DNA of 64,000 bases from Escherichia phage vB_EcoM_ESCO8, in sequence record OM386653.1, one strand, 5' to 3'. A program made the translations under genes and the position numbers. Positions 7,737-63,964 of the stretch are shown here, piece by piece. Positions within the stretch are counted from its first letter, which is position 1. Every line of letters starts with the position of its first letter. The notes beneath the pieces are model-generated. The model was not told the DNA's origin, searched no databases, and saw only the letters and a list, made by a program, of their open reading frames with translations.

Positions 7737-8165
7737 ATGTTACCAGTACCTGTAACCTTTGTAGAAAAAGCCTACTACTCTTTAGAACAAAACTGTAAAA
7801 GAGCTAAAAATTTTATTGAAAGTTTAGCAGAACAGCGTTACACTGTATCTAAAAAGGGATGGTTCAGAACTTCACAATATTTAGTCAACCCTTTCGGAGA
7901 AGTTCGTGTGTTGTATGGCAACACAGAAAATATCTTAGAAAGAATGTTAGAACTAGATAGGATCTCCTCCTGTGATTATCAACTGTTGAAATTTTACGAT
8001 GTGTCAGAAAGCGTTAAAAACTTTCTTGACGACTTATGTAAACGAAAAACAGAAGAAGATACAATACCAGTATCTATGGAAGAATTAACATTCTTAAGAG
8101 ATATTATGGTTTTTGAAGAAGACCCTGAAATCACAAAAGAGGAGATTTTAAGTAGTGGCAAATAA
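7737..8165 (+). CDS. hypothetical protein (142 aa)
   Basis: ORF track; aggaggagat RBS before ATG. Confidence 0.5.
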   Translation: MLPVPVTFVEKAYYSLEQNCKRAKNFIESLAEQRYTVSKKGWFRTSQYLVNPFGEVRVLYGNTENILERMLELDRISSCDYQLLKFYDVSESVKNFLDDLCKRKTEEDTIPVSMEELTFLRDIMVFEEDPEITKEEILSSGK

Positions 8166-8664
8166 GTATGATCGTCCACCAACTGATTACTATCCTACTC
8201 CACAAAAATGTATAAATGCATTATTTAGTGTAATAGATTTTAATAACCTTAAAGAAGAAGGTTTTATTTTTGCAGAACCGTGTAAAGGCGCTGCTGCTGC
8301 AATTTATCAACATTTTCCAGAAGGATCAGAATATTGTGAGTTAGAAGAAGGGAAAGATTATTTTAACCACGAATGGCATACTAAGCCGGATATTATAATC
8401 ACAAATCCCCCATTCAAACTTGCACTTGAGTTCTTGCAAAAGAGCTTAAAAGAAGCAGACGTTTGCATATACTTGTTGCGTCTTGGGTTCCTAGAGTCTA
8501 TTAAACGAAGGGAATTCCATAAACAGAATCCACCAACAAACTTGATTGTTCTTTCTGAACGACCATCTTTTGTTGCAGGTGGTACTGATAAGACAGCATA
8601 TGCTTGGTACGTCTACGACCCAAAAAACAGGCTGGGTTTAACTCAACCTTTCTATTTTGTTTAA
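8155..8664 (+). CDS. small amino-methyltransferase-like protein (putative DNA N6-adenine or N4-cytosine MTase)
   Basis: 169 aa; YYPTP, FAEPCKGAAAA (AdoMet-binding-like) and IITNPPF (motif IV) in gamma-class order. Confidence 0.55.
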   Translation: MANKYDRPPTDYYPTPQKCINALFSVIDFNNLKEEGFIFAEPCKGAAAAIYQHFPEGSEYCELEEGKDYFNHEWHTKPDIIITNPPFKLALEFLQKSLKEADVCIYLLRLGFLESIKRREFHKQNPPTNLIVLSERPSFVAGGTDKTAYAWYVYDPKNRLGLTQPFYFV

Positions 8665-8677
8665 GAGGAGCATTTTT

Positions 8678-9840: not shown

Positions 9841-10044
9841 ATGGTAGTTCAATCTTTTGAGGAGACTGTTAAAAAACAATTCCTATCGAAGCGAGCGATG
9901 GTTGAATTTTTGCATTTTCTCGAAGTAGATAGGGTACTTATTGAGACTACACCAGATGGTAACTGGCAAGTCTCGTATATTGCCACCAGGCATATCGTAG
10001 ACAGTACGAAAGAAGAAAGTTCGGAAGTTACGGTTGCTAGTTAA
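9841..10044 (+). CDS. hypothetical protein (67 aa)
   Basis: ORF track; aaggaggaaac RBS. Confidence 0.4.
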   Translation: MVVQSFEETVKKQFLSKRAMVEFLHFLEVDRVLIETTPDGNWQVSYIATRHIVDSTKEESSEVTVAS

Positions 10045-10055
10045 AGGAGTTAAAT

Positions 10056-10628
10056 ATGCGTTTAGCTTTTAACGGGAAGATAAGCACAGCAAACATATTA
10101 TCAGCCATAGGATTATTAGGTAAAAAATTCACACCTTTCAGTTTACCTGTTTGTGTAGATTTTGATCATGTATTTGATATTAATAATCCTTCACGTTGTA
10201 TCGCCAGAAGTAATATTGATAACCCAAGTGAAAATCTGTTTTATATTACTAAACCATCCCAGGCAATTTTGAATCAATGGGAAGCAGGTCTGATTAAACC
10301 AGGTAAATATTTTGCATTACTACCTTGTAAATCATTGGCTATAGAGGACAGTCTAAACTATGCAAACAATCTTGTTGTTACAGCATTCATTGTCTCAGAA
10401 AAAGAAGAAACTGCGGCACTTGCAAACACTGTTAAATCTTTGTATGATGCTTTGGGTGTTACTTACACTACCTTCGTTTGTGAAGATATTCCACATTGCG
10501 TTGAATTCGTGGTGAATGGTGTAACTGTATGTCGTGTAGAAACAACTCAAGACGAAGACGTTTTTATTACTGTAGCCGATGTAATATCTGAACCTGTGTT
10601 TAGCTACGCAGTTTCATTAACACATTAA
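10056..10628 (+). CDS. hypothetical protein (190 aa)
   Basis: ORF track; aaggag RBS. Confidence 0.5.
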   Translation: MRLAFNGKISTANILSAIGLLGKKFTPFSLPVCVDFDHVFDINNPSRCIARSNIDNPSENLFYITKPSQAILNQWEAGLIKPGKYFALLPCKSLAIEDSLNYANNLVVTAFIVSEKEETAALANTVKSLYDALGVTYTTFVCEDIPHCVEFVVNGVTVCRVETTQDEDVFITVADVISEPVFSYAVSLTH

Positions 10629-10638
10629 GGAGAAGGGG

Positions 10639-10965
10639 ATGAAAATAACGACAGAACAGGCTTTAATAGACAAAGGAAGGGAAATCTTAGAAAGTCATTT
10701 GGAGGATATTCAAAGGACTCCAGGGTATCTCGGCTGGCGTATACAAGAAGCCGTCGATTTTCTACCCCGTAAAAATAAAGAGATTGAAGTAAGATCTCTA
10801 TTCCTCCTTGTTAAAGTAGATGGTGACGCTATATACAAAGATGTAGCGTCTCACATTGAACAAATAGAAGAAAAAGCCTACAAAGAATTTGCAGATCTTG
10901 TTGTAGAACATAATATAGAAGGTAAAGTTAATATCTTTATACTTATGGATTTTGAGGAGAGTTGA
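10639..10965 (+). CDS. hypothetical protein (108 aa)
   Basis: ORF track; aaggagaagggg RBS. Confidence 0.45.
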   Translation: MKITTEQALIDKGREILESHLEDIQRTPGYLGWRIQEAVDFLPRKNKEIEVRSLFLLVKVDGDAIYKDVASHIEQIEEKAYKEFADLVVEHNIEGKVNIFILMDFEES

Positions 10966-11708
10966 TGCTAGTATATCAAGAAATTAGTGTAAAAGATGAT
11001 CAAGACCTGTTTATTATTGGTGATTTACATGGTTGCTTTGATTTGTACCAGAAAGGTGTTAATACTTTAGGTATCCGAGATCAAGATGTTGTTGTATCTT
11101 TAGGAGATCTTACAGATCGCGGCAAGCAGAATTTTCGTTGTGTTGTTGAATTCACCAGAAAGCTAAATCGTTATGGTATTCGTGGAAATCATGAAGATAT
11201 GATGATTAAAGGGTTGCTAGAAGGTGATAGACGATATTACGAATGTTGGTTTCAGAACGGAGGCCATACAGTTCTAGACGAGTGTGGAGAAGAGGGTGCA
11301 ACTGCTCTTGCTTTGATGCTAGAAGATTTACCTGTTGTACTTGTTGTCAATTATCGTAATATGAAACTAGGCTTTATTCACGGTGGGTATCCTTCAGTTT
11401 TGGAACATTTACCAGTGACAGAAGTTTTGCCATTTTGTTTGAATATGAATAAAGAGCAAGTTTCTCGATTCACAGAATCTTTAATGTGGGATCGTGATAT
11501 GATAGATTGCGCACTTGAAGGGATTCTTCTTCCTAGAGTTTCAGGAGTAGATTATGTATTTCACGGGCATTCTTATGTTCCTAAACCTGTGATTAGCAGT
11601 AATAGGGTATATATGGACACAGGATCTTGCTTCAATGGTAATTTAACCTTTGCATATTTTGATGATTCAAATACGTTACAATTTTATTCTACTTTAGAGG
11701 AGGACTAA
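10962..11708 (+). CDS. Ser/Thr protein phosphatase (calcineurin-like metallophosphoesterase)
   Basis: 248 aa; GDLHG, GDLTDRG, GNHE metal-binding motifs in canonical order. Confidence 0.8.
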   Translation: MMLVYQEISVKDDQDLFIIGDLHGCFDLYQKGVNTLGIRDQDVVVSLGDLTDRGKQNFRCVVEFTRKLNRYGIRGNHEDMMIKGLLEGDRRYYECWFQNGGHTVLDECGEEGATALALMLEDLPVVLVVNYRNMKLGFIHGGYPSVLEHLPVTEVLPFCLNMNKEQVSRFTESLMWDRDMIDCALEGILLPRVSGVDYVFHGHSYVPKPVISSNRVYMDTGSCFNGNLTFAYFDDSNTLQFYSTLEED

Positions 11709-12028
11709 TGTATAAAATCACAATTAAAGAAACAGTAGGAGAACTTACGAAAGAAACTACTATTGAGACGGAAGATGTTGAGTTAGTCAAAGAGCTTTTA
11801 TTTCCAAAACCAGAAATAAAAGATAATGATGAACAGTTGGATGAAGATAATGAGACAGCAAGGGATAAATGGAAGAAACAACTAGCGGAGATTTGGAAAA
11901 AGCCTGAAGTAACTCCTCCATTTGATCCTCGTAGACCTTATAATCCTTGGGAAATTGGAAGCCCTTGGTTTACGTACCCTATCACTCCAATTGTTAATCC
12001 AATTGTTACTCCCAATATTACTTGTTAA
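11708..12028 (+). CDS. hypothetical protein, Pro-rich C-terminus
   Basis: ORF track 106 aa. Confidence 0.4.
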   Translation: MYKITIKETVGELTKETTIETEDVELVKELLFPKPEIKDNDEQLDEDNETARDKWKKQLAEIWKKPEVTPPFDPRRPYNPWEIGSPWFTYPITPIVNPIVTPNITC

Positions 12029-12038
12029 GGAGAAAACC

Positions 12039-12617
12039 ATGAGCGATTTATTCTACACAGGTGTTGGTAGCAGAGATATTACAGACGAAGAATGGGATAC
12101 TATGGTATCTGTTGCAAAATGGCTATCTACATGGTTCATTTTGCGATCTGGTAAAGCAGAAGGTGCAGATTCCGCATTTGAATGCGGGGTATATGATAGT
12201 GGGAACAATACAAAGAAAGAAATATACATCCCTTGGCTCTCGTTTAAAGGTAATGAAATAGAGGGAGAGGTTATTGTTCTTGACAGACCAGATAGTGTAA
12301 ACTATGCTTTAACCTTGCAATATGCAAAAGAATTGCATCCAGCTTGGGACAGATTATCTCAAGGTGCTAAAAAATTACATCAAAGAAATATCCACCAAGT
12401 TCTTGGAAGAGATCTTGAGAATCCAAAACCATCTTGTTTTCTTTTAGCTTGTGCAAATACAGATAAAAATGGAGATCCTTTAGGTGGTACAAGAACAGCT
12501 TGGATGTTGGCTAAAAAGTTTAATGTTCCTTGTTTTAATATTCGAGGTAAAAGTAAAAAACAAATTTTCGAATTTATTAAGCCTATTTTAGAGGAGAATG
12601 GTCTTGTCCAGAAATAA
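12039..12617 (+). CDS. SLOG-like (DprA/LOG/YpsA-type) Rossmann-fold protein, tentative
   Basis: Track ORF starts at 11922; ATG at 12039 after aaggagaaaacc RBS preferred. YTGVGSRD then LRSGKAEGAD resembles the GxGxR / SGxAxGxD SLOG signature. Confidence 0.4.
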   Translation: MSDLFYTGVGSRDITDEEWDTMVSVAKWLSTWFILRSGKAEGADSAFECGVYDSGNNTKKEIYIPWLSFKGNEIEGEVIVLDRPDSVNYALTLQYAKELHPAWDRLSQGAKKLHQRNIHQVLGRDLENPKPSCFLLACANTDKNGDPLGGTRTAWMLAKKFNVPCFNIRGKSKKQIFEFIKPILEENGLVQK

Positions 12618-13122
12618 TATAAGCGTCATTAAAGATAGCTTTATTGATGTAACAAACGATATTGTACCTACAATACAATATATAGTTGAGGCACAAGGTT
12701 TAAACTTTATACGTGATAAAGTTAAGATTGTTTTTCATAACACTCCAGGTTTTGTAACAGTGGGTTCAACAAAAACGCCGTGCTCTACAGATCTGATTAC
12801 TTTAGACAAAAACTTAACACAAGAAGAAGTAGAAATTCTTAACCTCTATTGGTTAGGTTTTAAAAGATACGAGGATACAGCTTTATCCAGAATGTCAACT
12901 ATTTTAGCTAATATTCTGGTTCGGAAAATTTCTAAAATATGGGATGAAGAAAACCCAGATGAAATAGTTTTACACTTTGCTAAACCGGAAGACGGGGCAT
13001 ATGATATAGACACATCTGAAATGGCTTATGGATTTATTATTTCTGGTAATGTATTACAGATGGAATCTTTATTGTATGTTGAGACAGTAAAACACAATAA
13101 CAACTACGAGGAGGTTGTATGA
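12598..13122 (+). CDS. hypothetical protein (174 aa)
   Basis: ORF track. Confidence 0.5.
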   Translation: MVLSRNNISVIKDSFIDVTNDIVPTIQYIVEAQGLNFIRDKVKIVFHNTPGFVTVGSTKTPCSTDLITLDKNLTQEEVEILNLYWLGFKRYEDTALSRMSTILANILVRKISKIWDEENPDEIVLHFAKPEDGAYDIDTSEMAYGFIISGNVLQMESLLYVETVKHNNNYEEVV

Positions 13123-13376
13123 AAGGTTTAGAGTTTAACTTTGTAGATGCGTGGGAAGGATGGGATGAACTAGGAGTAGGGGATTTATGTTTTTATGATG
13201 TTACCTTGAAGGAAGAATACAAACATCTAGCTCCTAGTGAAGATTGCGATGTGATTCTATCTATTCTGTTAAGTCAGTCTATAGTGCAATTCGATTTCTT
13301 AAAAGGTAGTGAATGTATTGAAAGTAAAGCATTCCGTTTAGAAGTTTCTCTTGGTGAAGAAGTTCCTGTAGAATAA
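13119..13376 (+). CDS. hypothetical protein (85 aa)
   Basis: ORF track. Confidence 0.4.
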   Translation: MKGLEFNFVDAWEGWDELGVGDLCFYDVTLKEEYKHLAPSEDCDVILSILLSQSIVQFDFLKGSECIESKAFRLEVSLGEEVPVE

Positions 13377-13380
13377 TATA

Positions 13381-13402
13381 AACCCGCTTCGGCGGGTTTT
13401 TT
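13381..13402 (+). terminator. rho-independent terminator (cccgcTTCGgcggg + T6)
   Basis: Hairpin with tetraloop followed by tttttt. Confidence 0.6.
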
Positions 13403-13403
13403 G

Positions 13404-13432
13404 TTGACAACACTAGTTTTTTCGAATAAACT
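13404..13432 (+). promoter_or_regulatory. sigma70-like promoter (TTGACA-N17-TAAACT)
   Basis: Perfect -35 hexamer immediately after terminator, upstream of 13459 CDS. Confidence 0.45.
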
Positions 13433-13458
13433 ACAGAAAAACAGAAGAGGAGTTTAGC

Positions 13459-13869
13459 ATGTATTATAGTGATTATTTTGTAAACCCAACAAAAGAACAA
13501 CTTCAATCAGCAGTGGATAAGATGCAGATTGTAGTTAAAGAATGTGAGAAAATAAGAAAACAACTACAAGAGGAGACTGTTGTTGTTAATAAATGGTTTG
13601 GTCTTAAGAAGAAAGTTGTTAGTAAACACAATATCATCCTTGAAAAAGCAAAAACGACAGGAACTAGTTACGCCTTACAAGCCTTGTTACTAAATTACAT
13701 TGATATAGAACAACATTCTCTTCTGCACTGTTGGCTTAACAGCCCTGGTATTGAGGATCTCTTGTTCTGGTTATCGTGTGAATCTGTACTTTTAAATGAG
13801 AATGAGGCTTACCGTTTAAACTTCTGCCTCAAGGCAGAATTACCAGCTAGTGTTAAGGAGAAGAAGTAA
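13459..13869 (+). CDS. hypothetical protein (136 aa)
   Basis: ORF track; gaggag RBS. Confidence 0.5.
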   Translation: MYYSDYFVNPTKEQLQSAVDKMQIVVKECEKIRKQLQEETVVVNKWFGLKKKVVSKHNIILEKAKTTGTSYALQALLLNYIDIEQHSLLHCWLNSPGIEDLLFWLSCESVLLNENEAYRLNFCLKAELPASVKEKK

Positions 13870-13871
13870 TA

Positions 13872-14861
13872 ATGAAAGTTTTAAGTCTTTTTGATGGTAT
13901 GTCAGGAGGAATGCTTGCGCTAAAAAGTGCAGGTATTGAAGTAGATACATATTACGCTTCAGAATTAGACAAATTTGCCGTAGCTGAAAGCCAAGCAAAT
14001 TTTCCAGATATTATTCAGTTAGGTGATGTTACAAAATGGAGAGAATGGGATATCCCGTGGGGAGAAATTGATCTTTTGTTAGGTGGTAGTCCGTGTCAAG
14101 GCTTCTCTTCTTCTGGTAAGGGTTTGAACTTTCAAGATCCGCGATCTAAGCTATTCTTCGAATATGTTGAAATTCTTGAACATATTAAAAAGTTTAATCC
14201 TAATGTTAAGTTCATGCTTGAAAACGTTAAGATGAAAGCGGAGTGGGAAAACGTGATCACAAGTTACTTAGGTGTTGATCCCGTATTCATTAACTCCGCA
14301 GATTTCACGGCACAGAATAGACAACGTTTATACTGGTGCAACTGGGAAATAAAACCCTGGGAGATTACCAATGAAGTGTTGCAAGATATCATTGAAGATG
14401 ATAGTATTGTAGACAGAGATAAGGCTTATTGCATAGATGCAAATTATGCCAAAGGTGGTAATATAGAACAGTATTTTGAAAAGAGTCGCAGACAACTGGT
14501 TTTTTATCCGGCAGCAATATATGGGCGTAGAATTAATGAAAATGGCAAACGTAGTACATCTAAAACTGATCGTTTGGTACATTGTTTGGAAGTTCAGGAC
14601 AGTGGAAAAACTCGTTGCCTCACAACTGTGCCTAAAGACGTACTATTAGCTTATATTCCACCTGGAAGATATCTAGATGCCTTTGAAAAATTAAGTGAAG
14701 GCGTACATTATAGAAAGTTAACGGTTAAAGAGTGTTGCCGCTTGCAAGGTGTGCCAGATGACTACTTTAAAGTGAGTAGTAACACACAAGCATATAAGAT
14801 GTTAGGCAATGGTTGGACTATACCTGTCATTGCACATATTCTTAAATGTATGGAGGAATAA
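13872..14861 (+). CDS. DNA cytosine-5 methyltransferase
   Basis: 329 aa; motif I LFDGMSGG, motif IV GGSPCQGFS, motif VI ENV, motif VIII QNRQR, motif X GNGWTIPV. Confidence 0.85.
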   Translation: MKVLSLFDGMSGGMLALKSAGIEVDTYYASELDKFAVAESQANFPDIIQLGDVTKWREWDIPWGEIDLLLGGSPCQGFSSSGKGLNFQDPRSKLFFEYVEILEHIKKFNPNVKFMLENVKMKAEWENVITSYLGVDPVFINSADFTAQNRQRLYWCNWEIKPWEITNEVLQDIIEDDSIVDRDKAYCIDANYAKGGNIEQYFEKSRRQLVFYPAAIYGRRINENGKRSTSKTDRLVHCLEVQDSGKTRCLTTVPKDVLLAYIPPGRYLDAFEKLSEGVHYRKLTVKECCRLQGVPDDYFKVSSNTQAYKMLGNGWTIPVIAHILKCMEE

Positions 14862-14983
14862 TGGAAACATTGTGGAAAGGCTGGAAGACTGCTGTGATAG
14901 CTTTTATAATTCCATTAACTTTTCTTGGTTGGTGTTTTTGGGAATTTATCTTTTGGTTAATTTCCCATATACATTGGGGGTAA
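14861..14983 (+). CDS. small hydrophobic peptide (40 aa)
   Basis: Not in track; ggaggaataATG overlapping dcm stop, stop abuts next ATG; one predicted TM helix. Confidence 0.35.
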   Translation: METLWKGWKTAVIAFIIPLTFLGWCFWEFIFWLISHIHWG

Positions 14984-14984
14984 T

Positions 14985-15593
14985 ATGACTCAAAAAGTTG
15001 CATATCAAGTAGATCGTGAAGATGGTGAAGGTAGTGTTGTAGTTTTTGATACACATGGTCTTGCAGCAAGACGCAAAGGTGCTTGTCTACTGGACATTGG
15101 TGGTGAAGATGAATACTGCACTGTACGTAGAGTAAAAGAATTTGATCAATATGCTGAAAAAGGTTTTGTACCCGTGAAAGCACTATTAGAAGCTGGATGG
15201 TGGATACCTAGTGCACATGATTATGATATTTTGGAAGATACAGATGAATTCAACAGTGAAGATTTTGTTTTTTCTCTGGATGAAAAATGTGTTTGGAAAA
15301 ACTGGGATGAAATGGAACGCCATGCTTATTTTATAAACGAAGCATTAGATCGTAAAACTTGGTTTGAAAATACAGTTAAAGCAGCGTATCCTCAATTTAC
15401 TTTTACACAGTTTTGGGGTGGCCCACATCATATTACTCATACAGCATATTTCGAGTTCCCAGGTTCACGTTATAAAGGTACTGTTTATTGGGATTGGGAC
15501 GAGAACAAAGAACCTTCTGCTCAAGATTTCCGTTGCTATGTTTGTCAAGGTGATCAAGAAGCCCTTGACAAGTACCTTAAAAGTCTGGTATAA
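14985..15593 (+). CDS. hypothetical protein (202 aa)
   Basis: ORF track. Confidence 0.5.
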   Translation: MTQKVAYQVDREDGEGSVVVFDTHGLAARRKGACLLDIGGEDEYCTVRRVKEFDQYAEKGFVPVKALLEAGWWIPSAHDYDILEDTDEFNSEDFVFSLDEKCVWKNWDEMERHAYFINEALDRKTWFENTVKAAYPQFTFTQFWGGPHHITHTAYFEFPGSRYKGTVYWDWDENKEPSAQDFRCYVCQGDQEALDKYLKSLV

Positions 15594-15632: not shown

Positions 15633-15647
15633 TTGTGTGGAGGATAT

Positions 15648-16178
15648 ATGGGTTTTGATGATATGTTATTATATGAGGAGGCTTGTGTGAAAGAAGCTAT
15701 GGCTTTACCAGTTTTATCTATTGATATTACAACAGTAGACACTTTTTCAGATTGTGAAACGTGTGGATCGTATTCGTCTATTGTACATGAAGTTAGTGGG
15801 GATTTAGGCACTTACGAAGATGGAGATTATGCAAGTTGTTTAGGTGATAATCGAGATGGTGAAGTGGCGAATGTTGCAAACTGGATTGCTTCTAAGTTAA
15901 AAGAAAGAAATCGTCCGTTCCCTAATCTTCTTACACCAGAAGCTATGCTTAAAGCTGAACAAGAGATGTATGATTATGGTTATAAAGTAGATTATGACTA
16001 TAATGATCCTAAATATAAAAAATTGAGTGACAAGTATTGGGAACTAGCTAATGCTTATGATAAATACTACTCTACAGAAAACATTGTTAAATTGTTTTTA
16101 GATTTTGGAGTAGAAATTAATTGGGATTTCGAAGAGGAAGAGCGTTACGACGCATCTTCTTGGGATGATGATTACTAA
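15648..16178 (+). CDS. hypothetical acidic protein
   Basis: Track ORF from 15633; ATG at 15648 after ggaggatat RBS preferred. Confidence 0.5.
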   Translation: MGFDDMLLYEEACVKEAMALPVLSIDITTVDTFSDCETCGSYSSIVHEVSGDLGTYEDGDYASCLGDNRDGEVANVANWIASKLKERNRPFPNLLTPEAMLKAEQEMYDYGYKVDYDYNDPKYKKLSDKYWELANAYDKYYSTENIVKLFLDFGVEINWDFEEEERYDASSWDDDY

Positions 16179-16189
16179 GAGGATATTGA

Positions 16190-17002
16190 ATGCGAAGAGT
16201 AATTTTTGTTAGTGGCGCAGGTTTAAGTGCAGACAGTGGGATTCGAACGTTCCGAACAGACACAGATAGTGGTCGTGCCTTATGGGAAGAATATGACTTA
16301 GAAGAGGTCTGCGATATTGGAGCTTTCCAAGCAGGTTATCGTGTGAGAACATCTCCAGATCTTCCAGTGGTCGGTGGTGTAGACGAGAACGGTATGGACT
16401 TGTATGCCAAAACACACGAATTTTATAACAAAAGACGTGTTGAGCTTAAAGATGTACAACCTAATGCTGCACATATTCAAATAGCAAAGTGGTTTAAGGA
16501 ATATCCTAACCAAGTAGTAAACTTGACAACAAACGTCGATGATCTACTAGAGCGAGCAGGTGTGGACAGGGATTCTGTTATTCACGTGCACGGGTATCTC
16601 CCTGAAGTAGTTTACCGTATGCATCCTGGAGATTACAAAACACTGGTAGACATTGGTTACAATAGTATAAACATAGATGATTATAACTGGGTGAAGCCTA
16701 ATGTTGTATTTTTTGGTGAGGCTGCACCTTTGTATGCAGATATGGCTCACTTGTTTGATACTTTGACCATGCAAGATTTGGTTGTTGTAGTAGGATGTTC
16801 AAACCAAGTTATCAATTTTAATTGGGAATTATTCCCTGCACTTAATATGGGTACAAAAATGATTGTTGTTAACCCAGGAATTAATTACGAAGAAACTCTT
16901 CTTTACGAAGATAGAGGAGTCTTTGTTTACAGAGAAAAGGCAGCAGATGCTTTTAGCAATCCTGCTTTCATAAAAATGATAGAAGATCATTTGACTAAGT
17001 AA
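16190..17002 (+). CDS. Sir2-family (sirtuin-like) protein lacking the zinc-ribbon cysteines
   Basis: 270 aa; FVSGAGLSADSGIRTFR, TTNVDDLLERAG, HVHGY (catalytic His), VFFGEA and VVVGCS blocks in canonical order; no CxxC...CxxC module. Confidence 0.75.
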   Translation: MRRVIFVSGAGLSADSGIRTFRTDTDSGRALWEEYDLEEVCDIGAFQAGYRVRTSPDLPVVGGVDENGMDLYAKTHEFYNKRRVELKDVQPNAAHIQIAKWFKEYPNQVVNLTTNVDDLLERAGVDRDSVIHVHGYLPEVVYRMHPGDYKTLVDIGYNSINIDDYNWVKPNVVFFGEAAPLYADMAHLFDTLTMQDLVVVVGCSNQVINFNWELFPALNMGTKMIVVNPGINYEETLLYEDRGVFVYREKAADAFSNPAFIKMIEDHLTK

Positions 17003-20526: not shown

Positions 20527-20775
20527 TTACCATCGAATAACTATTCGAGTAAAGTTTTCATCGTAATGAGATGTTTCTGTATCAATAAAAGTTAAAAAAC
20601 CTTCAGCATCCAAGCTAACTTTTACGAAAGTTGGATAAAGCGTGTATATAGCAGCTTCTCTGTCTCCATCTTTAGCTGCTCTTTCAATATACGCGTAGAT
20701 GTTTTGTAAACTCTCCTTTGCTTTGTTAAGTTCTGCGTTTTCTGCCAGTTCTCTCATTTTATCTGCTACAGTCAT
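20527..20775 (-). CDS. hypothetical protein (82 aa)
   Basis: ORF track. Confidence 0.45.
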   Translation of the reverse strand: MTVADKMRELAENAELNKAKESLQNIYAYIERAAKDGDREAAIYTLYPTFVKVSLDAEGFLTFIDTETSHYDENFTRIVIRW

Positions 20776-21044
20776 TTGTCAGTATCCTTTTCAATAAAGC
20801 CTGTGGTTTTACAAGGTACACATTCATACATTTGTCCAACATCTGCAACCACCCAACCCATTCCATTGCAATAAGGACAGATTGTTTTGTTCTCTTTAGC
20901 ATACACAGCCAGAAGTCTTTCTTCTAGCTTGTTGTAATCAGCAAGAAGAACATAGTCTCCTTCTGGATCTGGTACAATATCACATTGACCAGCAGCACCT
21001 TGGCTGTACACCTCTAAACCATATCGTGTAACCATTATCCCCAC
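20772..21044 (-). CDS. zinc-ribbon protein (CPYCNG...CVPC)
   Basis: ORF track 90 aa; two CxxC pairs. Confidence 0.45.
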   Translation of the reverse strand: MGIMVTRYGLEVYSQGAAGQCDIVPDPEGDYVLLADYNKLEERLLAVYAKENKTICPYCNGMGWVVADVGQMYECVPCKTTGFIEKDTDK

Positions 21045-21253
21045 TCCGCAATCAGTTTTGGATTTTCTGCACGAGAATAGAATGTTGTAATGTCACCGTA
21101 AGTGTACTCTTGTTCCGACAGTTTTACAAGAGAGATCATTTCACGATCTGGAGTACCAGGAATCCAGTCAAATACAGCAACGCCACGTGGTGTTACATAG
21201 AAACCAGATGTATTACCCGTAAACTTATCTTTTCCTTTATATAATTTGTACAC
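21035..21253 (-). CDS. hypothetical protein (72 aa)
   Basis: ORF track; GTG start with aggag RBS. Confidence 0.4.
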   Translation of the reverse strand: MYKLYKGKDKFTGNTSGFYVTPRGVAVFDWIPGTPDREMISLVKLSEQEYTYGDITTFYSRAENPKLIAEWG

Positions 21254-42688: not shown

Positions 42689-43240
42689 TCAGGAAATATC
42701 AGATTGTGCTTTTAGATAAACAGCAAGGTCTGTATGCCATTTTCCTAAAAGATTTTGTCCTTTCCAACAGTCCTTATTTTCCACATCACGATCCCACATT
42801 CCCATTTTGATACCATAAATAGAATCATAAGGGCTTGCCTCTACGAACTCCTTATCTGCGTAAGCGATAAGTTTATTTTTGAGATCTTCATTTTGTGTGT
42901 ATTTAAGATACAAACCACGCTTGACAATCTTCTCCCGTAAAGAAGTCCAAGTAGCTTCATCGTAATCTTTAACTAATCTACCTAGTCGCTTATAATATGC
43001 CTGTTCTTTTTCTCCTGTATATCTTAGATCTCCGGTTAAAATAGAAGATGCAATGTTGTAATCATAAAACAAACATGCTTTTCTCCACATCATATATTGT
43101 TCCACACAAGTAAATTCAACAGAACTTGTAATAGAATTATTATACTTGGGAGCTAAAGGTTCAATAAAAGATGATAGATACCAGTTGCTAAATTCATCTT
43201 TTGCCGAGAAGAAGAACACATACTTATCAGTAATCCGCAT
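42689..43240 (-). CDS. NADAR-domain (YbiA-like) protein
   Basis: 183 aa; FFFSAKDEFSNWY, CVEQYMMWRKA, GQNLLGKWHTDLAVYL fit the NADAR pattern (F.F....SN..., ..EQ..QA.KA, G.NLLG). Confidence 0.65.
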   Translation of the reverse strand: MRITDKYVFFFSAKDEFSNWYLSSFIEPLAPKYNNSITSSVEFTCVEQYMMWRKACLFYDYNIASSILTGDLRYTGEKEQAYYKRLGRLVKDYDEATWTSLREKIVKRGLYLKYTQNEDLKNKLIAYADKEFVEASPYDSIYGIKMGMWDRDVENKDCWKGQNLLGKWHTDLAVYLKAQSDIS

Positions 43241-44413
43241 TTACATCTCCTTACTGTATACTAATTTGCCACCATATTGTGTAATAATTTTTTGAAGATT
43301 TTCCAAATCAGAAACACTTACTGTTTCTGTATAACCATCTTTCAACTCTCTTGCCGTTAAAATACCAGTTTTTAATTTTTTCTTTATAGCTCTTTCAGCA
43401 GCCCTACATTGTTTCACTGTGCTAAAATCATATAAACAAATACGCCCCATAAAAAACAGATTACGGCTCTTTTGACCGTTTAATCGTCTATCGCTATCTT
43501 TAGATATACCAAACTTAAGAGCAACTATAATATCATTATCTTTAACAATATTAATATATAATTGCTGTTGATTATGACCAGCACACTGTGGACAACCTTG
43601 ACCGAGGCTTAATAAATTACGAGCACTCCCTATCTGCTCACCATGCACAAGACAAAGATATTTAAACTTACCTATAGAAGAGGGTTTGGTAATCCAATCT
43701 ACCCAGACATACCCTTTCCCTTCTACTTCCTTTTTTACCCTATAGGTGATCTGGTCTTCTGTATACTGATAGTTCCCACAACGACACGGAATATACCCTT
43801 GTTTAAGGTTATGTCCTGCAGAGTAAAATTTACCATCACAAACACCTGCTTGAACATATTCATCATGGGAGCAAACAGGACACTCAACCATCCATACTGC
43901 ATCACGCTTGTTACGTTTCCCTGTATTGGTGAAGATAGTGCCTTCCTTAAATTCCCCTGTAGAAAAGAAATCTGCAATATGTTGATCGTCGGACATTGTT
44001 TGTCTCTCCCTCTTACATTGTGGACAACCGCTACCACGTTTAAAATTGTTAATACTTGTAGTATCCCATTTATTACCACAATGACACAACAAATCAAGTT
44101 TTGTTTTATTCCCTTTCCATTCTCCCACGTACCCTAACACCTGATACCCCCTCTTCTGTGCTATCTCTTCCAAGATCGGCAATTCTGTTTCCCATGTTAA
44201 CGGCTTCTTACCAGAACAGATAGGACAACCACGTCCCTTCTTAAAATCATTAATGTTCGTGGTGTTCCACTCTCCATGTTTAGGACAAGATAGCTTAAGT
44301 TTAGTCTTGTTCCCTTTCCATTCACCAACATAACCCAGGATTTGAATATTGCGATTTTTAGCAAGGGGTGTTAATTCTTCTTTATATTGTTCCCATGATT
44401 TTGGTGCTGTCAT
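43241..44413 (-). CDS. zinc-ribbon-repeat protein with C-terminal GIY-YIG/T5orf172-like domain (putative nuclease)
   Basis: 390 aa; two tandem ~45 aa repeats (LGYVGEWKGNKTKL.L.C...G.W.TT.IN.FK.G.GCP.C), further GCPQC motif, C-terminal LYINIV...ALKFGISKDSDRRL resembling the T5orf172 KxGxT...RR core. Confidence 0.4.
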   Translation of the reverse strand: MTAPKSWEQYKEELTPLAKNRNIQILGYVGEWKGNKTKLKLSCPKHGEWNTTNINDFKKGRGCPICSGKKPLTWETELPILEEIAQKRGYQVLGYVGEWKGNKTKLDLLCHCGNKWDTTSINNFKRGSGCPQCKRERQTMSDDQHIADFFSTGEFKEGTIFTNTGKRNKRDAVWMVECPVCSHDEYVQAGVCDGKFYSAGHNLKQGYIPCRCGNYQYTEDQITYRVKKEVEGKGYVWVDWITKPSSIGKFKYLCLVHGEQIGSARNLLSLGQGCPQCAGHNQQQLYINIVKDNDIIVALKFGISKDSDRRLNGQKSRNLFFMGRICLYDFSTVKQCRAAERAIKKKLKTGILTARELKDGYTETVSVSDLENLQKIITQYGGKLVYSKEM

Positions 44414-61590: not shown

Positions 61591-61746
61591 ATGCTTACAG
61601 ATGATGAATATAAAGCTATCCAAGAAAAACTAACGGAACTTGAAATTCTTGCTGTCAATATTAAAGATCAATCACATGCTGGAAAGTTACTACATCAAGA
61701 GATCAATAAAATTAAGCAGATGATATTCTTTTGGACGGAGGATTAA
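61591..61746 (+). CDS. small protein (51 aa)
   Basis: Not in track; ggggaagaaaATG RBS; stop abuts HAD-like gene. Confidence 0.35.
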   Translation: MLTDDEYKAIQEKLTELEILAVNIKDQSHAGKLLHQEINKIKQMIFFWTED

Positions 61747-61748
61747 AA

Positions 61749-62405
61749 ATGACTGTTAAGCATATTTCTTTTGATGTATGGAATACTCTTATTACTGCTA
61801 ATCCTTTGTATGCAGAAGAACGCAACAAGGTTATTGCCGAGTATGCCTCTTGTTCTGAGGTAGAAGCAGCTACCGTATATAAAGAGGTAAAAACTCTCCT
61901 GGATTTAAAAGCAGAAAAAGGCATTTGTGGAACATCTAGAAATGCTTGGGAAACACTTTCTGCTCGTTTGAACATTGATCTTGATAAAGTAGATGGGTTA
62001 AAAAGAGACTGTTTAGCAATGTTTATAAAACATCCTCCAACATTAAACCCTGAACTTTGCAAGAAGTTGGAAGAGCTAAGTTCAACCTATTCTTTGAGTA
62101 TTAAAAGCAATACTAATTTTGTACCTGGTAGTTTTTTAGCTGTATATTCTGGCTTGACAAAATTACCATTCGACTTTATGCATTTTTCTGACGAGTTTTG
62201 CTTGTGTAAACCAGATCCTAGGTTTTTTAAACTCTCTTTTGATGAAATGGTAACGTTTGATCTCGCACCAGAGGAGATCTTACACGTTGGAGATAGTTTG
62301 ATCTATGATGGAAAAGCTGTTGACATAGGGATGAAGTTCTGTCATATTATTAATCCAGAAGACTTGTTGGCTAAACTTAAAAAAGAGGAACTTATTAATG
62401 CGTAA
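61749..62405 (+). CDS. HAD-superfamily-like hydrolase, tentative
   Basis: Track ORF from 61731; ATG at 61749 after ggaggattaaaa. N-terminal ISFDVWNTL (haloacid-dehalogenase-like DxxGTL variant) and C-terminal HVGDSLIYDGKAVDIGM (motif IV-like). Confidence 0.45.
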   Translation: MTVKHISFDVWNTLITANPLYAEERNKVIAEYASCSEVEAATVYKEVKTLLDLKAEKGICGTSRNAWETLSARLNIDLDKVDGLKRDCLAMFIKHPPTLNPELCKKLEELSSTYSLSIKSNTNFVPGSFLAVYSGLTKLPFDFMHFSDEFCLCKPDPRFFKLSFDEMVTFDLAPEEILHVGDSLIYDGKAVDIGMKFCHIINPEDLLAKLKKEELINA

Positions 62406-63255
62406 TCAAATTCAACATTTTGCTAATACTTTTACTAACCTGAAGGAAGCAAAATTTAACATTGCAGATTATTCCAAGCTAAAGTTTGGTAGTAACCAGG
62501 CAGCAAAAAGAATGGGGCGCATTCTGGCTGAAAGTTTCTTTTCCAAGTATGAAGAACGACTGGTAAATGAAAGTTTTGTTGTTATTCCATCTCCATATAA
62601 CTATGTGAAAAATGCAGCTACAGTGTTATCTGAACATTTTGTAGATCACCTCAACTACCTAATCTCTATCAAAGGAGGTAAAGCAGTGGAGTGGGATATC
62701 GTTCATCGTAAAGTGAGCTATATCAATGATTATGGATTTCTTAGCAAAGAAGATCGTAAGGCTTTGATCGATGGTGACACTTTCTCTATCAATCGTGATT
62801 TCTGGGGTAATAAAACTCTGATTTTCATTGATGATGTTAATATTACAGGAACGCACGAAGAAAAACTTATTGAAATTTTAGACAAAGAAGGTGTTGAAAA
62901 CGATACGTTTTTCCTGTACTTTGCAAAGTATGAAGGTACAGAAGCCAATACCGAAGCTGCACTTAACTTCAACTATATCAATAACCTGGCAGCTTTTATT
63001 AAAATGATTAAACAAGAAACTGATGCTAAATGTTTGGTTCGTCCTATTAAGTATCTAATGAGTCAAAGCGAAGTTGATTTTAAAATTGCACTTTCACAGC
63101 TTCCTTTGTATTATGTAGAACAACTGTTCTTTGGTTGCCTTGCAGAAGGCTACAATAACATTGAAAAATATAAAGAGAACTTTGATTTCCTACGTCAATT
63201 TTTTGAAAGCAACATTATCAACAAATCTAATGTTAAAGGGGATTATTATGTCTAA
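62398..63255 (+). CDS. phosphoribosyltransferase (type I PRT) fold protein
   Basis: 285 aa; TLIFIDDVNITGTH matches the PRPP-binding loop (hhhhDDhhxTGxT). Confidence 0.5.
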   Translation: MRNQIQHFANTFTNLKEAKFNIADYSKLKFGSNQAAKRMGRILAESFFSKYEERLVNESFVVIPSPYNYVKNAATVLSEHFVDHLNYLISIKGGKAVEWDIVHRKVSYINDYGFLSKEDRKALIDGDTFSINRDFWGNKTLIFIDDVNITGTHEEKLIEILDKEGVENDTFFLYFAKYEGTEANTEAALNFNYINNLAAFIKMIKQETDAKCLVRPIKYLMSQSEVDFKIALSQLPLYYVEQLFFGCLAEGYNNIEKYKENFDFLRQFFESNIINKSNVKGDYYV

Positions 63256-63964
63256 TAAAGTAATGACTTTCGGAGATCCTATCACCAATATTACAGAAAA
63301 AGATTTTGGGCGTGTAGCAACAGATAAAGATGGTGTCTTAAGAATTCGTGTACAAGGTATTACAGCACAGGATGAATATGCTGTGTATGTTTCAGGTCTT
63401 AACTATATTGATGATCGCATTACACAAAACTTTGCACTGATCGGTGGTGTAGAGAAAATGTATTGGGAAGATGAAATTGTAACAAGTTATCCGGCAGGTA
63501 TCATTGAGGTATACGGTGATCTTTTAGCAGCAGCCGAGAGAGGCGATATAGACGCTATAGCACACTGCTGTAACTGTTTTTGCACTATGGGTAGTGGTAT
63601 TGCACCAAAAATTAAAAGCAAGTGGCCTGGTGCGTTTAAAGCAGATTGTGCCACTAAACATGGTGATTATAAAAAATTAGGTACGTTTACCAAATATATA
63701 GAAAACAATTTGACAATTTATAATTTATATGGACAATATGGTTATAGTCGTCGTGAGGAAGGTAAGCGTGACCTGAATTATGAAGCTATCTACAATGCGT
63801 TAGATAGTATGGGAGACGATGTTGTATCTTCAGGCGGTAAAATTGTAGGTTTACCAATGCTTGGTTGTGGTTTGGCTGGAGGTTCTTGGAGTATTGTAAA
63901 ACTTATGATCGAAGAAACTCTAGTAAACAAAGGTTTAAATGTAATTGTTTACAAACTGAAATAA
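63248..63964 (+). CDS. macro-domain protein with N-terminal extension
   Basis: Track ORF from 63131; ATG at 63248 (MSNKV). GDIDAIAHCCNCFCTMGSGIA resembles macro D-A-I-V-N-A-A-N...GGGV; C-terminal VGLPMLGCGLAGGS resembles the macro diphosphate-binding loop. Confidence 0.5.
   Translation: MSNKVMTFGDPITNITEKDFGRVATDKDGVLRIRVQGITAQDEYAVYVSGLNYIDDRITQNFALIGGVEKMYWEDEIVTSYPAGIIEVYGDLLAAAERGDIDAIAHCCNCFCTMGSGIAPKIKSKWPGAFKADCATKHGDYKKLGTFTKYIENNLTIYNLYGQYGYSRREEGKRDLNYEAIYNALDSMGDDVVSSGGKIVGLPMLGCGLAGGSWSIVKLMIEETLVNKGLNVIVYKLK

Follow-up and report, generated by a model that had tools for sequence, protein, structure and literature searches.

Phages related to phi92 carry a small gene whose database name is that of a DNA recombination mediator, and the question that it raises is whether its product acts on phage DNA or on a soluble nucleotide. 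We analysed this gene in Escherichia phage vB_EcoM_ESCO8 (OM386653.1), within a stretch of 64,000 nucleotides, the whole of which is called the window here. The original prediction, drawn from two sequence motifs, placed the product in the SLOG superfamily and proposed that it acts on nucleotide signals in a genome that also carries Sir2, Macro and NADAR genes. About 3% of sequenced phages have a member of its family, which comprises thousands of sequence clusters, and the gap is functional.

The gene and its family

The gene is a single ORF of 192 amino acids at 12039..12617 (+), with the ATG at 12039 and the stop codon ending at 12617, exactly the span originally predicted. Its start lies 10 nt past the stop of the preceding gene, and 6 nt upstream of the ATG the sequence shows a ribosome-binding site, AAGGAG (12027..12032, +), a motif also annotated for gene 047 in the phi92 RefSeq record. 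The homologues share the N-terminal start M-x-x-x-Y-T-G-V-G-S-R with the 192-aa protein, which rules out the upstream TTG at 11922 as the gene's start codon. The protein is 100% identical to Phi92_gp047. Over window positions 10000-15000, the 20 best-matching records, among them vB-Eco-KMB37, inny, EmilieFrey and phi92, show 98.7-99.3% identity, and none of the 55 matching records falls below 95%; the identity to EmilieFrey, a member of the BASEL collection (locus tags bas61), is 99.1%. The source is a phi92-type E. coli myophage, Justusliebigvirus, and both phi92 and its relative EmilieFrey are tractable E. coli phages in which a DNA-directed role could be told from a small-molecule role. The downstream ORF, Phi92_gp046 (12598..13122, +; 174 aa, PHROG 8569), overlaps the 3' end of the gene by 20 nt at its start and is probably co-translated with it. 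Phi92_gp046 has no Pfam match, and no homologue of it was found beside the SLOG gene in 12 other loci, indicating that it is lineage-specific and not a conserved partner.

Phi92_gp047 matches the PHROG 768 profile over its full length (residues 2-186 of 192, E=8.6e-60). PHROG 768 is named 'DprA-like DNA recombination-mediator protein', which is also the RefSeq product name; gene 047 is described in the phi92 record as 'potential DNA processing protein like fold', and the EmilieFrey copy bears the BASEL label 'putative DprA-like recombination protein'. The gene and its DprA-like fold are already in the databases, and finding them adds little in itself. Direct scans of the protein against Pfam, NCBIfam and PADLOC gave no match, and NSA2, the sole yield of a single-sequence PDB search, was discarded as a chance match.

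Relatives were found by tblastn in 1,508 of 50,697 phage records, several of which are 220-320 kb long, and this conservation rules out an ORF artefact. An HMMER profile search gave 6,011 clusters at 50% identity with E<=1e-3, 2,058 of them with E<=1e-30. The groups checked by taxonomy are phi92-like phages (Stephanstirmvirinae), Vequintavirinae, Pakpunavirus, a T5-like Demerecviridae phage, an N4-like Schitoviridae phage and a T4-like Krischvirus. Among 185,579 cellular genomes, only two loci were found by a pattern scan that was kept deliberately strict and built on a 12-sequence alignment, so the close family appears to be largely viral. The two loci, one on a Saccharibacteria MAG contig (L017, 1702-2247) and one on a 2.6-Mb contig of a Desulfosarcina MAG (L018, 5001-5435), show 35-38% identity.

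Fold and conserved pocket of Phi92_gp047

The AlphaFold2 model, built on 61 homologues as a single domain of 192 aa, has a mean pLDDT of 96.6 and a pTM of 0.92, with alternating strands and helices. The fold is a three-layer Rossmannoid alpha/beta one, and its closest relatives in structure are SLOG proteins. Structural matches to the model scored 15.9 for the Moco carrier protein (2iz5), 15.2 for DprA (3maj), 14.9 for the LOG protein TM1055 (1rcu), 14.7 for H. pylori DprA (4ljk), 14.3 for YgdH (9us2), 13.3 for ShosA (8zva), 12.3 for YpsA (2nx2) and 10.8 for the ThsA SLOG domain with 3'cADPR (7uxs). Foldseek placed H. pylori DprA first (E about 3e-6, TM 0.54-0.59), and all of its matches with E<=1e-3 were SLOG proteins; neither a non-Rossmann fold nor an unrelated family appeared. 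The original assignment to SLOG stands, being borne out by the PHROG 768 match, the pLDDT of the model and the SLOG-only top structural matches, and the model supports a SLOG/DprA-type fold for Phi92_gp047.

Conservation was read from 61 diverse homologues that are 39-77% identical to the query. The two motifs on which the original prediction was based, GVGSRD and LRSGKAEGAD, map to residues 8-13 (nt 12060-12077) and 35-44 (nt 12141-12170) and are separated by 21 residues (about 25 in the prediction). Within them, G10, R12, G38, A40, G42 and D44 are invariant, and the PHROG 768 match together with the presence of the family in 1,508 phage records and 6,011 clusters puts both motifs far beyond chance. 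The first lies in a glycine-rich loop past strand 1, G8-V-G10-S11-R12 (12060..12074, +), which corresponds to DprA motif 1 'G-S/T/A-R' and was aligned by HMMER to VGSR/IGTR of solved DprAs; G8 and S11 are at least 90% conserved. The second, the strand-2 to helix-2 motif L35-R-S-G-K-A-E-G-A-D44 (12141..12170, +), corresponds to DprA 'SGxAxGxD', with R36 and S37 at least 90% conserved, and aligns to DprA chains and to E. coli Smf, where TSGLARGID is the counterpart of RSGKAEGAD. The helix past the third core strand, L113-H114-Q-R116-N117-I-H-Q120-V-L-G123 (12375..12407, +), corresponds to DprA motif 2 'F/L/Y-x-x-R-N/D'; here H114, R116, N117, Q120 and G123 are invariant, and L113 is at least 90% conserved. 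A phosphate-binding loop and helix N-terminus, G149-G150-T151-R-T153-A154 (12483..12500, +), correspond to DprA 'SGSxxTA' and LOG 'PGGxGTxxE', with G149, G150 and T151 invariant and T153 and A154 at least 90% conserved. All SLOG ligand-contact motifs are present, namely the Gly-rich loop, the G-rich motif of strand 2, the polar residues of the strand-3 helix and the GG(x)T loop, and the family has W66, H114, Q120 and S132 as extra invariant residues of its own. In the secondary structure of the model, all 16 invariant residues lie at strand ends or helix starts, where Rossmann folds usually hold their ligand; an enzyme, or a site for one specific ligand, typically shows such a pattern. As judged from the alignments, the invariant residues reproduce the nucleotide pocket of DprA.

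Wang et al. defined the DprA domain by two motifs of the ssDNA pocket, 'G-S/T/A-R' and 'F/L/Y-x-x-R-N/D' (PMC3950713). In H. pylori DprA (HpDprA), motif 1 is Gly50-Arg52, with Arg52 as the pocket switch, and motif 2 is Phe140-Asn144 in the base-binding pocket, in which Tyr108, Arg143, Asn144 and Gly164 take one inserted thymine; the affinity for ssDNA falls about 315-fold in the R52E mutant and about 173-fold in R143E (PMC3950713). Phi92_gp047 has both motifs, as G10-S11-R12 and L113-H-Q-R116-N117. The five best PDB profile matches were all DprA. The Pfam DprA model matched 47 of the 61 homologues at E<=0.1, weakly (best E=3.6e-6), and SLOG cluster 4 was matched by 10 of the 61. These sequence comparisons support DprA as the closest relative within SLOG. 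The query itself had no match to Pfam DprA (PF02481) at E<=1, and the DprA scores of the 20 long family members scanned individually, 16-29 bits, were all below the gathering threshold of 29.6 bits. Alignment of the family profile with E. coli Smf by hhalign covered the first 40 residues only, and motifs past these residues were mapped manually, by eye. In this manual mapping, Smf IHP..L corresponds to LHPAW.RL of the phage protein, FPRRNRIISGLS to LHQRNIHQVLG, SGSLVTA to GGTRTA, and VFALPG to PCFNIRG.

The proximity to DprA in sequence and structure and the conserved DprA ssDNA motifs are what a classical DprA mediator would display, that is, a protein that coats phage ssDNA, displaces SSB and loads RecA or a phage recombinase for recombination-dependent replication; such a role has been proposed for the DprA/Smf genes of jumbo phages (PMC7824862). 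However, Phi92_gp047 consists of the DprA domain alone, with 192 aa against the 374 aa of E. coli Smf, and lacks the N-terminal SAM domain and the C-terminal winged-helix/DML1-like domains of the bacterial multi-domain architecture. The T4-like phages, in which the family is also present, encode their own mediator system, UvsX/UvsY. Comparison with DprA/Smf (PF02481; 4LJR, 3UQZ, 3MAJ) revealed that the regions of the dimer and RecA interfaces are not conserved in the phage family; no conserved surface was found outside the pocket, and the C-terminal helix, equivalent to the DprA dimer interface in the manual alignment, is variable. The Pfam DprA scores below the gathering threshold also count against a classical mediator, and the fusions to NADAR and DUF4326 described below would be unexpected for a RecA loader. 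A classical mediator therefore appears unlikely. These fusions, together with the invariant W66, H114, Q120 and S132 and the largely viral distribution, set the family apart from DprA.

Comparison with the LOG/PpnN phosphoribohydrolases revealed that the phage domain is longer and of the DprA type, and that Ala154 (GGTRTAW) stands in place of the catalytic Glu of PGGxGTxxE. The protein had no match to the LOG model of Pfam (PF03641), and a LOG-type hydrolase with the canonical Glu was ruled out, the motif being absent.

Domain fusions and candidate ligands

Fusions to NADAR and DUF4326 in relatives of Phi92_gp047 are the strongest functional clue. Twenty long members of the family were scanned for fusions: P0072 and 19 proteins drawn from the 150 best cluster representatives. 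NADAR was found in four of the 20: it is N-terminal to the SLOG domain in P0137 and P0208, and it is C-terminal in P0121 (1475 aa) and P0122 (1488 aa), each of which has three different SLOG domains. DUF4326 was found in another four (P0196, P0204, P0209 and P0072), and PHROG 2072 and PHROG 9995 in two each. A second search yielded one more SLOG-DUF4326 fusion, P0283, and a fusion of DUF4326 to a YAcAr-type SLOG, P0317. No Macro fusion was seen in the scanned family sample. The ADP-ribose-domain fusions are a feature of the relatives, and Phi92_gp047 itself is stand-alone. The SLOG domains of P0121 and P0122 are of the Phi92_gp047 family, the YAcAr type and cluster 4, and both proteins resemble the 'polyvalent' proteins that some phages have been proposed to inject with their DNA.

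Viral SLOG domains and their architectures were described by Iyer, Burroughs, Anantharaman and Aravind in 2022; these domains are predicted to sense or degrade ADP-ribose derivatives, and DUF4326 is predicted to process ribose-linked phosphates or to bridge NAD systems and DNA modification (PMC9503650; PMC7824862). The viral SLOGs of PMC9503650 are stand-alone and co-occur with Macro, NADAR and Nudix, and the NADAR and DUF4326 fusions are reproduced here for the Phi92_gp047 family. NADAR is a phage enzyme that neutralises DarT1, which ADP-ribosylates phage DNA (PMC11825919).

On the basis of the DprA homology and the NADAR/DUF4326 fusions, we lean, tentatively, towards a DNA-directed role in the protection or repair of phage ssDNA. 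The pocket would hold a base of ssDNA, and the protein would serve as an accessory of DNA protection or counter-defence and not as a classical RecA loader. As a minimal single-domain DprA-type SLOG protein, Phi92_gp047 would grip one nucleotide by its base and phosphate; by analogy with H. pylori DprA, the most likely ligand would be a base in single-stranded phage DNA, perhaps an ADP-ribosylated base. The protein would be expressed with the early/middle genes of DNA and nucleotide metabolism and would work beside the ADP-ribose-removing enzymes NADAR, Macro and DUF4326; it may bind its ligand only or may cleave a glycosidic bond as well.

Several features count against this reading. At pI 6.83 (family median 7.7), the protein is not basic, which is unusual for a general ssDNA binder. 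DprA requires its dimer for high-affinity ssDNA binding, through an interface that in HpDprA includes Pro183, Leu196 and Phe205 (PMC3950713), and the manual alignment places this region in the variable C-terminus of the phage family. The invariant H114, Q120, W66 and S132 suggest, from conservation, a more specific ligand or catalysis. The NADAR/DUF4326 fusions are equally compatible with soluble ADP-ribose as the ligand (PMC9503650).

Alternatively, the pocket would take up a soluble ligand, either NAD-derived or a nucleotide monophosphate (ADP-ribose, a cyclic ADPR isomer, NMN or AMP, for example), and the protein would sequester it or cleave its N-glycosidic bond, thereby blunting host signalling or toxic metabolites. 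This reading combines the idea of the original prediction with the published prediction for viral SLOGs (PMC9503650). The structural matches include LOG, PpnN and ThsA with 3'cADPR, SLOG relatives whose ligands or substrates are free nucleotides. Among the invariant, enzyme-like residues is an 'H-x-R' reminiscent of the LOG motif 'MHxRK', and the neutral pI and the family fusions to NADAR, DUF4326 and other SLOG types point in the same direction. We regard a soluble ligand as somewhat less likely than the DNA-directed role.

Returning to the DNA-directed role, a 'mini-DprA' might take a modified base into its DprA-type pocket and so read, or even erase, ADP-ribosylated bases on ssDNA, acting through recruitment of NADAR/Macro or through its own base-ribose cleavage, although we consider this quite improbable. 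If true, it would represent a widespread and so far unrecognised counter-defence against DNA-ADP-ribosylating toxins of the DarT type. The family could become catalogued as a common counter-defence gene, and with its enzyme-like invariant pocket and repeated ADP-ribose-domain fusions, the current name 'recombination mediator' may mislead.

The SLOG domain of ThsA (Thoeris) and ShosA share the common fold, and both act in phage-host conflict. The PADLOC models for a ThsA-type sensor and for ShosA gave no match at E<=1, and a ThsA-like sensor with a built-in effector was ruled out, the phage protein being stand-alone without an effector domain. Nor was an adjacent effector of the ThsA or ShosA kind found, as 3.6 kb separate the SLOG gene from Sir2 and 50 kb from the PRTase gene. 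A further candidate reading is an antitoxin mimic or direct inhibitor that would imitate ShosA against the PRTase toxins of ShosTA or bind another defence protein. This appears highly improbable, since PADLOC gave no ShosA match at E<=1 and ShosA is no closer to the phage protein than ordinary DprA, and the breadth of the family and its invariant pocket favour a ligand over a protein interface specific to one defence.

ORF83, a phage protein annotated as DprA/Smf, is an Avs3 inhibitor according to Gao et al. 2022, as analysed in a preprint (10.1101/2025.06.06.658234); the preprint models it as LOG-like and AMP-binding and describes homologues in amoeba viruses that are fused to DUF4326. An Avs3 inhibitor modelled as an AMP binder would suit the soluble ligand. 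Compared by its published description, ORF83 shares with Phi92_gp047 a small SLOG domain, the R-N pair of the pocket and the threonine of GGT, and its homologues are fused to DUF4326; however, the spacing of R89/T112 differs from that of R116/T151, and its best PDB matches are LOG proteins, not DprA. A Marseillevirus SLOG (BFVD), taken as a stand-in for the Tunisvirus protein paired with ORF83 in the preprint, was a distant match to the AlphaFold2 model (TM 0.44, 17% identity), and a search with the SLOG-DUF4326 fusion returned no named Marseillevirus proteins among its matches. ORF83 probably belongs to a different SLOG subfamily, and its anti-Avs activity is therefore not transferable to the phage protein. 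As the link was not established, ORF83 was dropped as a functional guide and treated as an analogue, not as evidence on Phi92_gp047.

Genomic setting

The Sir2, NADAR and Macro genes cited as context in the original prediction were all recovered by Pfam. The Sir2-family gene (16190..17002, +; SIR2 E=1.3e-22) lies about 3.6 kb downstream of the SLOG gene, the stand-alone NADAR gene is at 42689..43240 (-; NADAR E=2.3e-36), and the Macro-domain gene is at 63131..63964 (+; Macro E=1.6e-6). They are about 4, 30 and 50 kb from the SLOG gene and are not clustered with it. The Macro ORF runs over the end of a gene for a ComF-like PRTase (62398-63255, +; PRTase_3 E=1.1e-41), and an internal ATG near 63230 is probably where the Macro gene truly starts; the macrodomain gene annotated in EmilieFrey has 735 nt. 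A gene for a HAD-like hydrolase (61731-62405, +) is tightly packed with the PRTase_3 and Macro genes. The pairing of a PRTase and a Macro domain in the segment 61731-63964 (+) suggests a module that processes phosphoribosyl or ADP-ribose groups; ShosTA, with its DprA-like antitoxin, also has a toxin of the PRTase fold. Directly upstream of the NADAR gene, a gene at 43241-44413 (-) encodes a protein of 390 aa that has three CapR-homology repeats, matches of the treble-clef zinc-finger-like kind and a weak match to T5orf172.

Analysis of 15 loci from different phage groups, with all-against-all BLAST of the flanking genes from 13 of them, revealed no partner gene conserved across phage groups. 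The usual setting in the 15 loci is a co-directional block of genes for DNA and nucleotide metabolism, including thymidylate synthase, dCMP deaminase, ribonucleotide reductase, glutaredoxin, PhoH and DNA methyltransferases. A position among DNA-metabolism genes would also suit the classical mediator considered above. Neither in phi92 nor in the remaining loci read does a NADAR, Macro or DUF4326 gene adjoin the SLOG gene, which counts against the DNA-directed role. In the T5-like Pectobacterium phage DU_PP_V (L004, 3492-5959), the SLOG gene overlaps the start of a split NAD-dependent DNA ligase, and in the Pakpunavirus Pseudomonas phage Ps12 (L006, 1-4076), it is 0.7-3 kb downstream of NAMPT and a PRPP-synthetase-like gene. 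Such NAD-linked neighbours in two phage groups favour a soluble ligand; they are not a general association.

In phi92, a NinI-like metallophosphatase is encoded (window 10962-11708, +) two genes ahead of the SLOG gene. A metallophosphatase homologous to it (28% identity, E=7e-18) is encoded two genes downstream of the SLOG gene on an unrelated 93-kb metagenomic phage contig (L008, 6277-6981), the sole flanking match across groups, and a further Metallophos gene is located 4 kb upstream of the SLOG gene in L010. This may be a weak association or a coincidence.

DNA methyltransferase genes lie about 1-4 kb from the SLOG gene in five loci (phi92, SPLA5a, Av-05, L016 and EmilieFrey), with sites at 13872-14861 (+) of the window, at 20660-21169 of the phi92 record (about 8150-8670 of the window) and in loci L003, L016 and L019. 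H. pylori DprA is reported to help incoming DNA to pass the restriction barrier (PMC3597690), and by analogy an anti-restriction role of the phage protein may be regarded as a lead.

Two further ORFs of the window, at 10056-10628 (+) and 15633-16178 (+), encode proteins of 180-190 aa that belong to PHROG 4806 and PHROG 9509 and are named 'histidyl tRNA synthetase' or 'putative aminoacyl-tRNA synthetase' in related records. These names are doubtful because the ORFs are far too short for a synthetase, and they look like over-annotation of a fragment-like domain.
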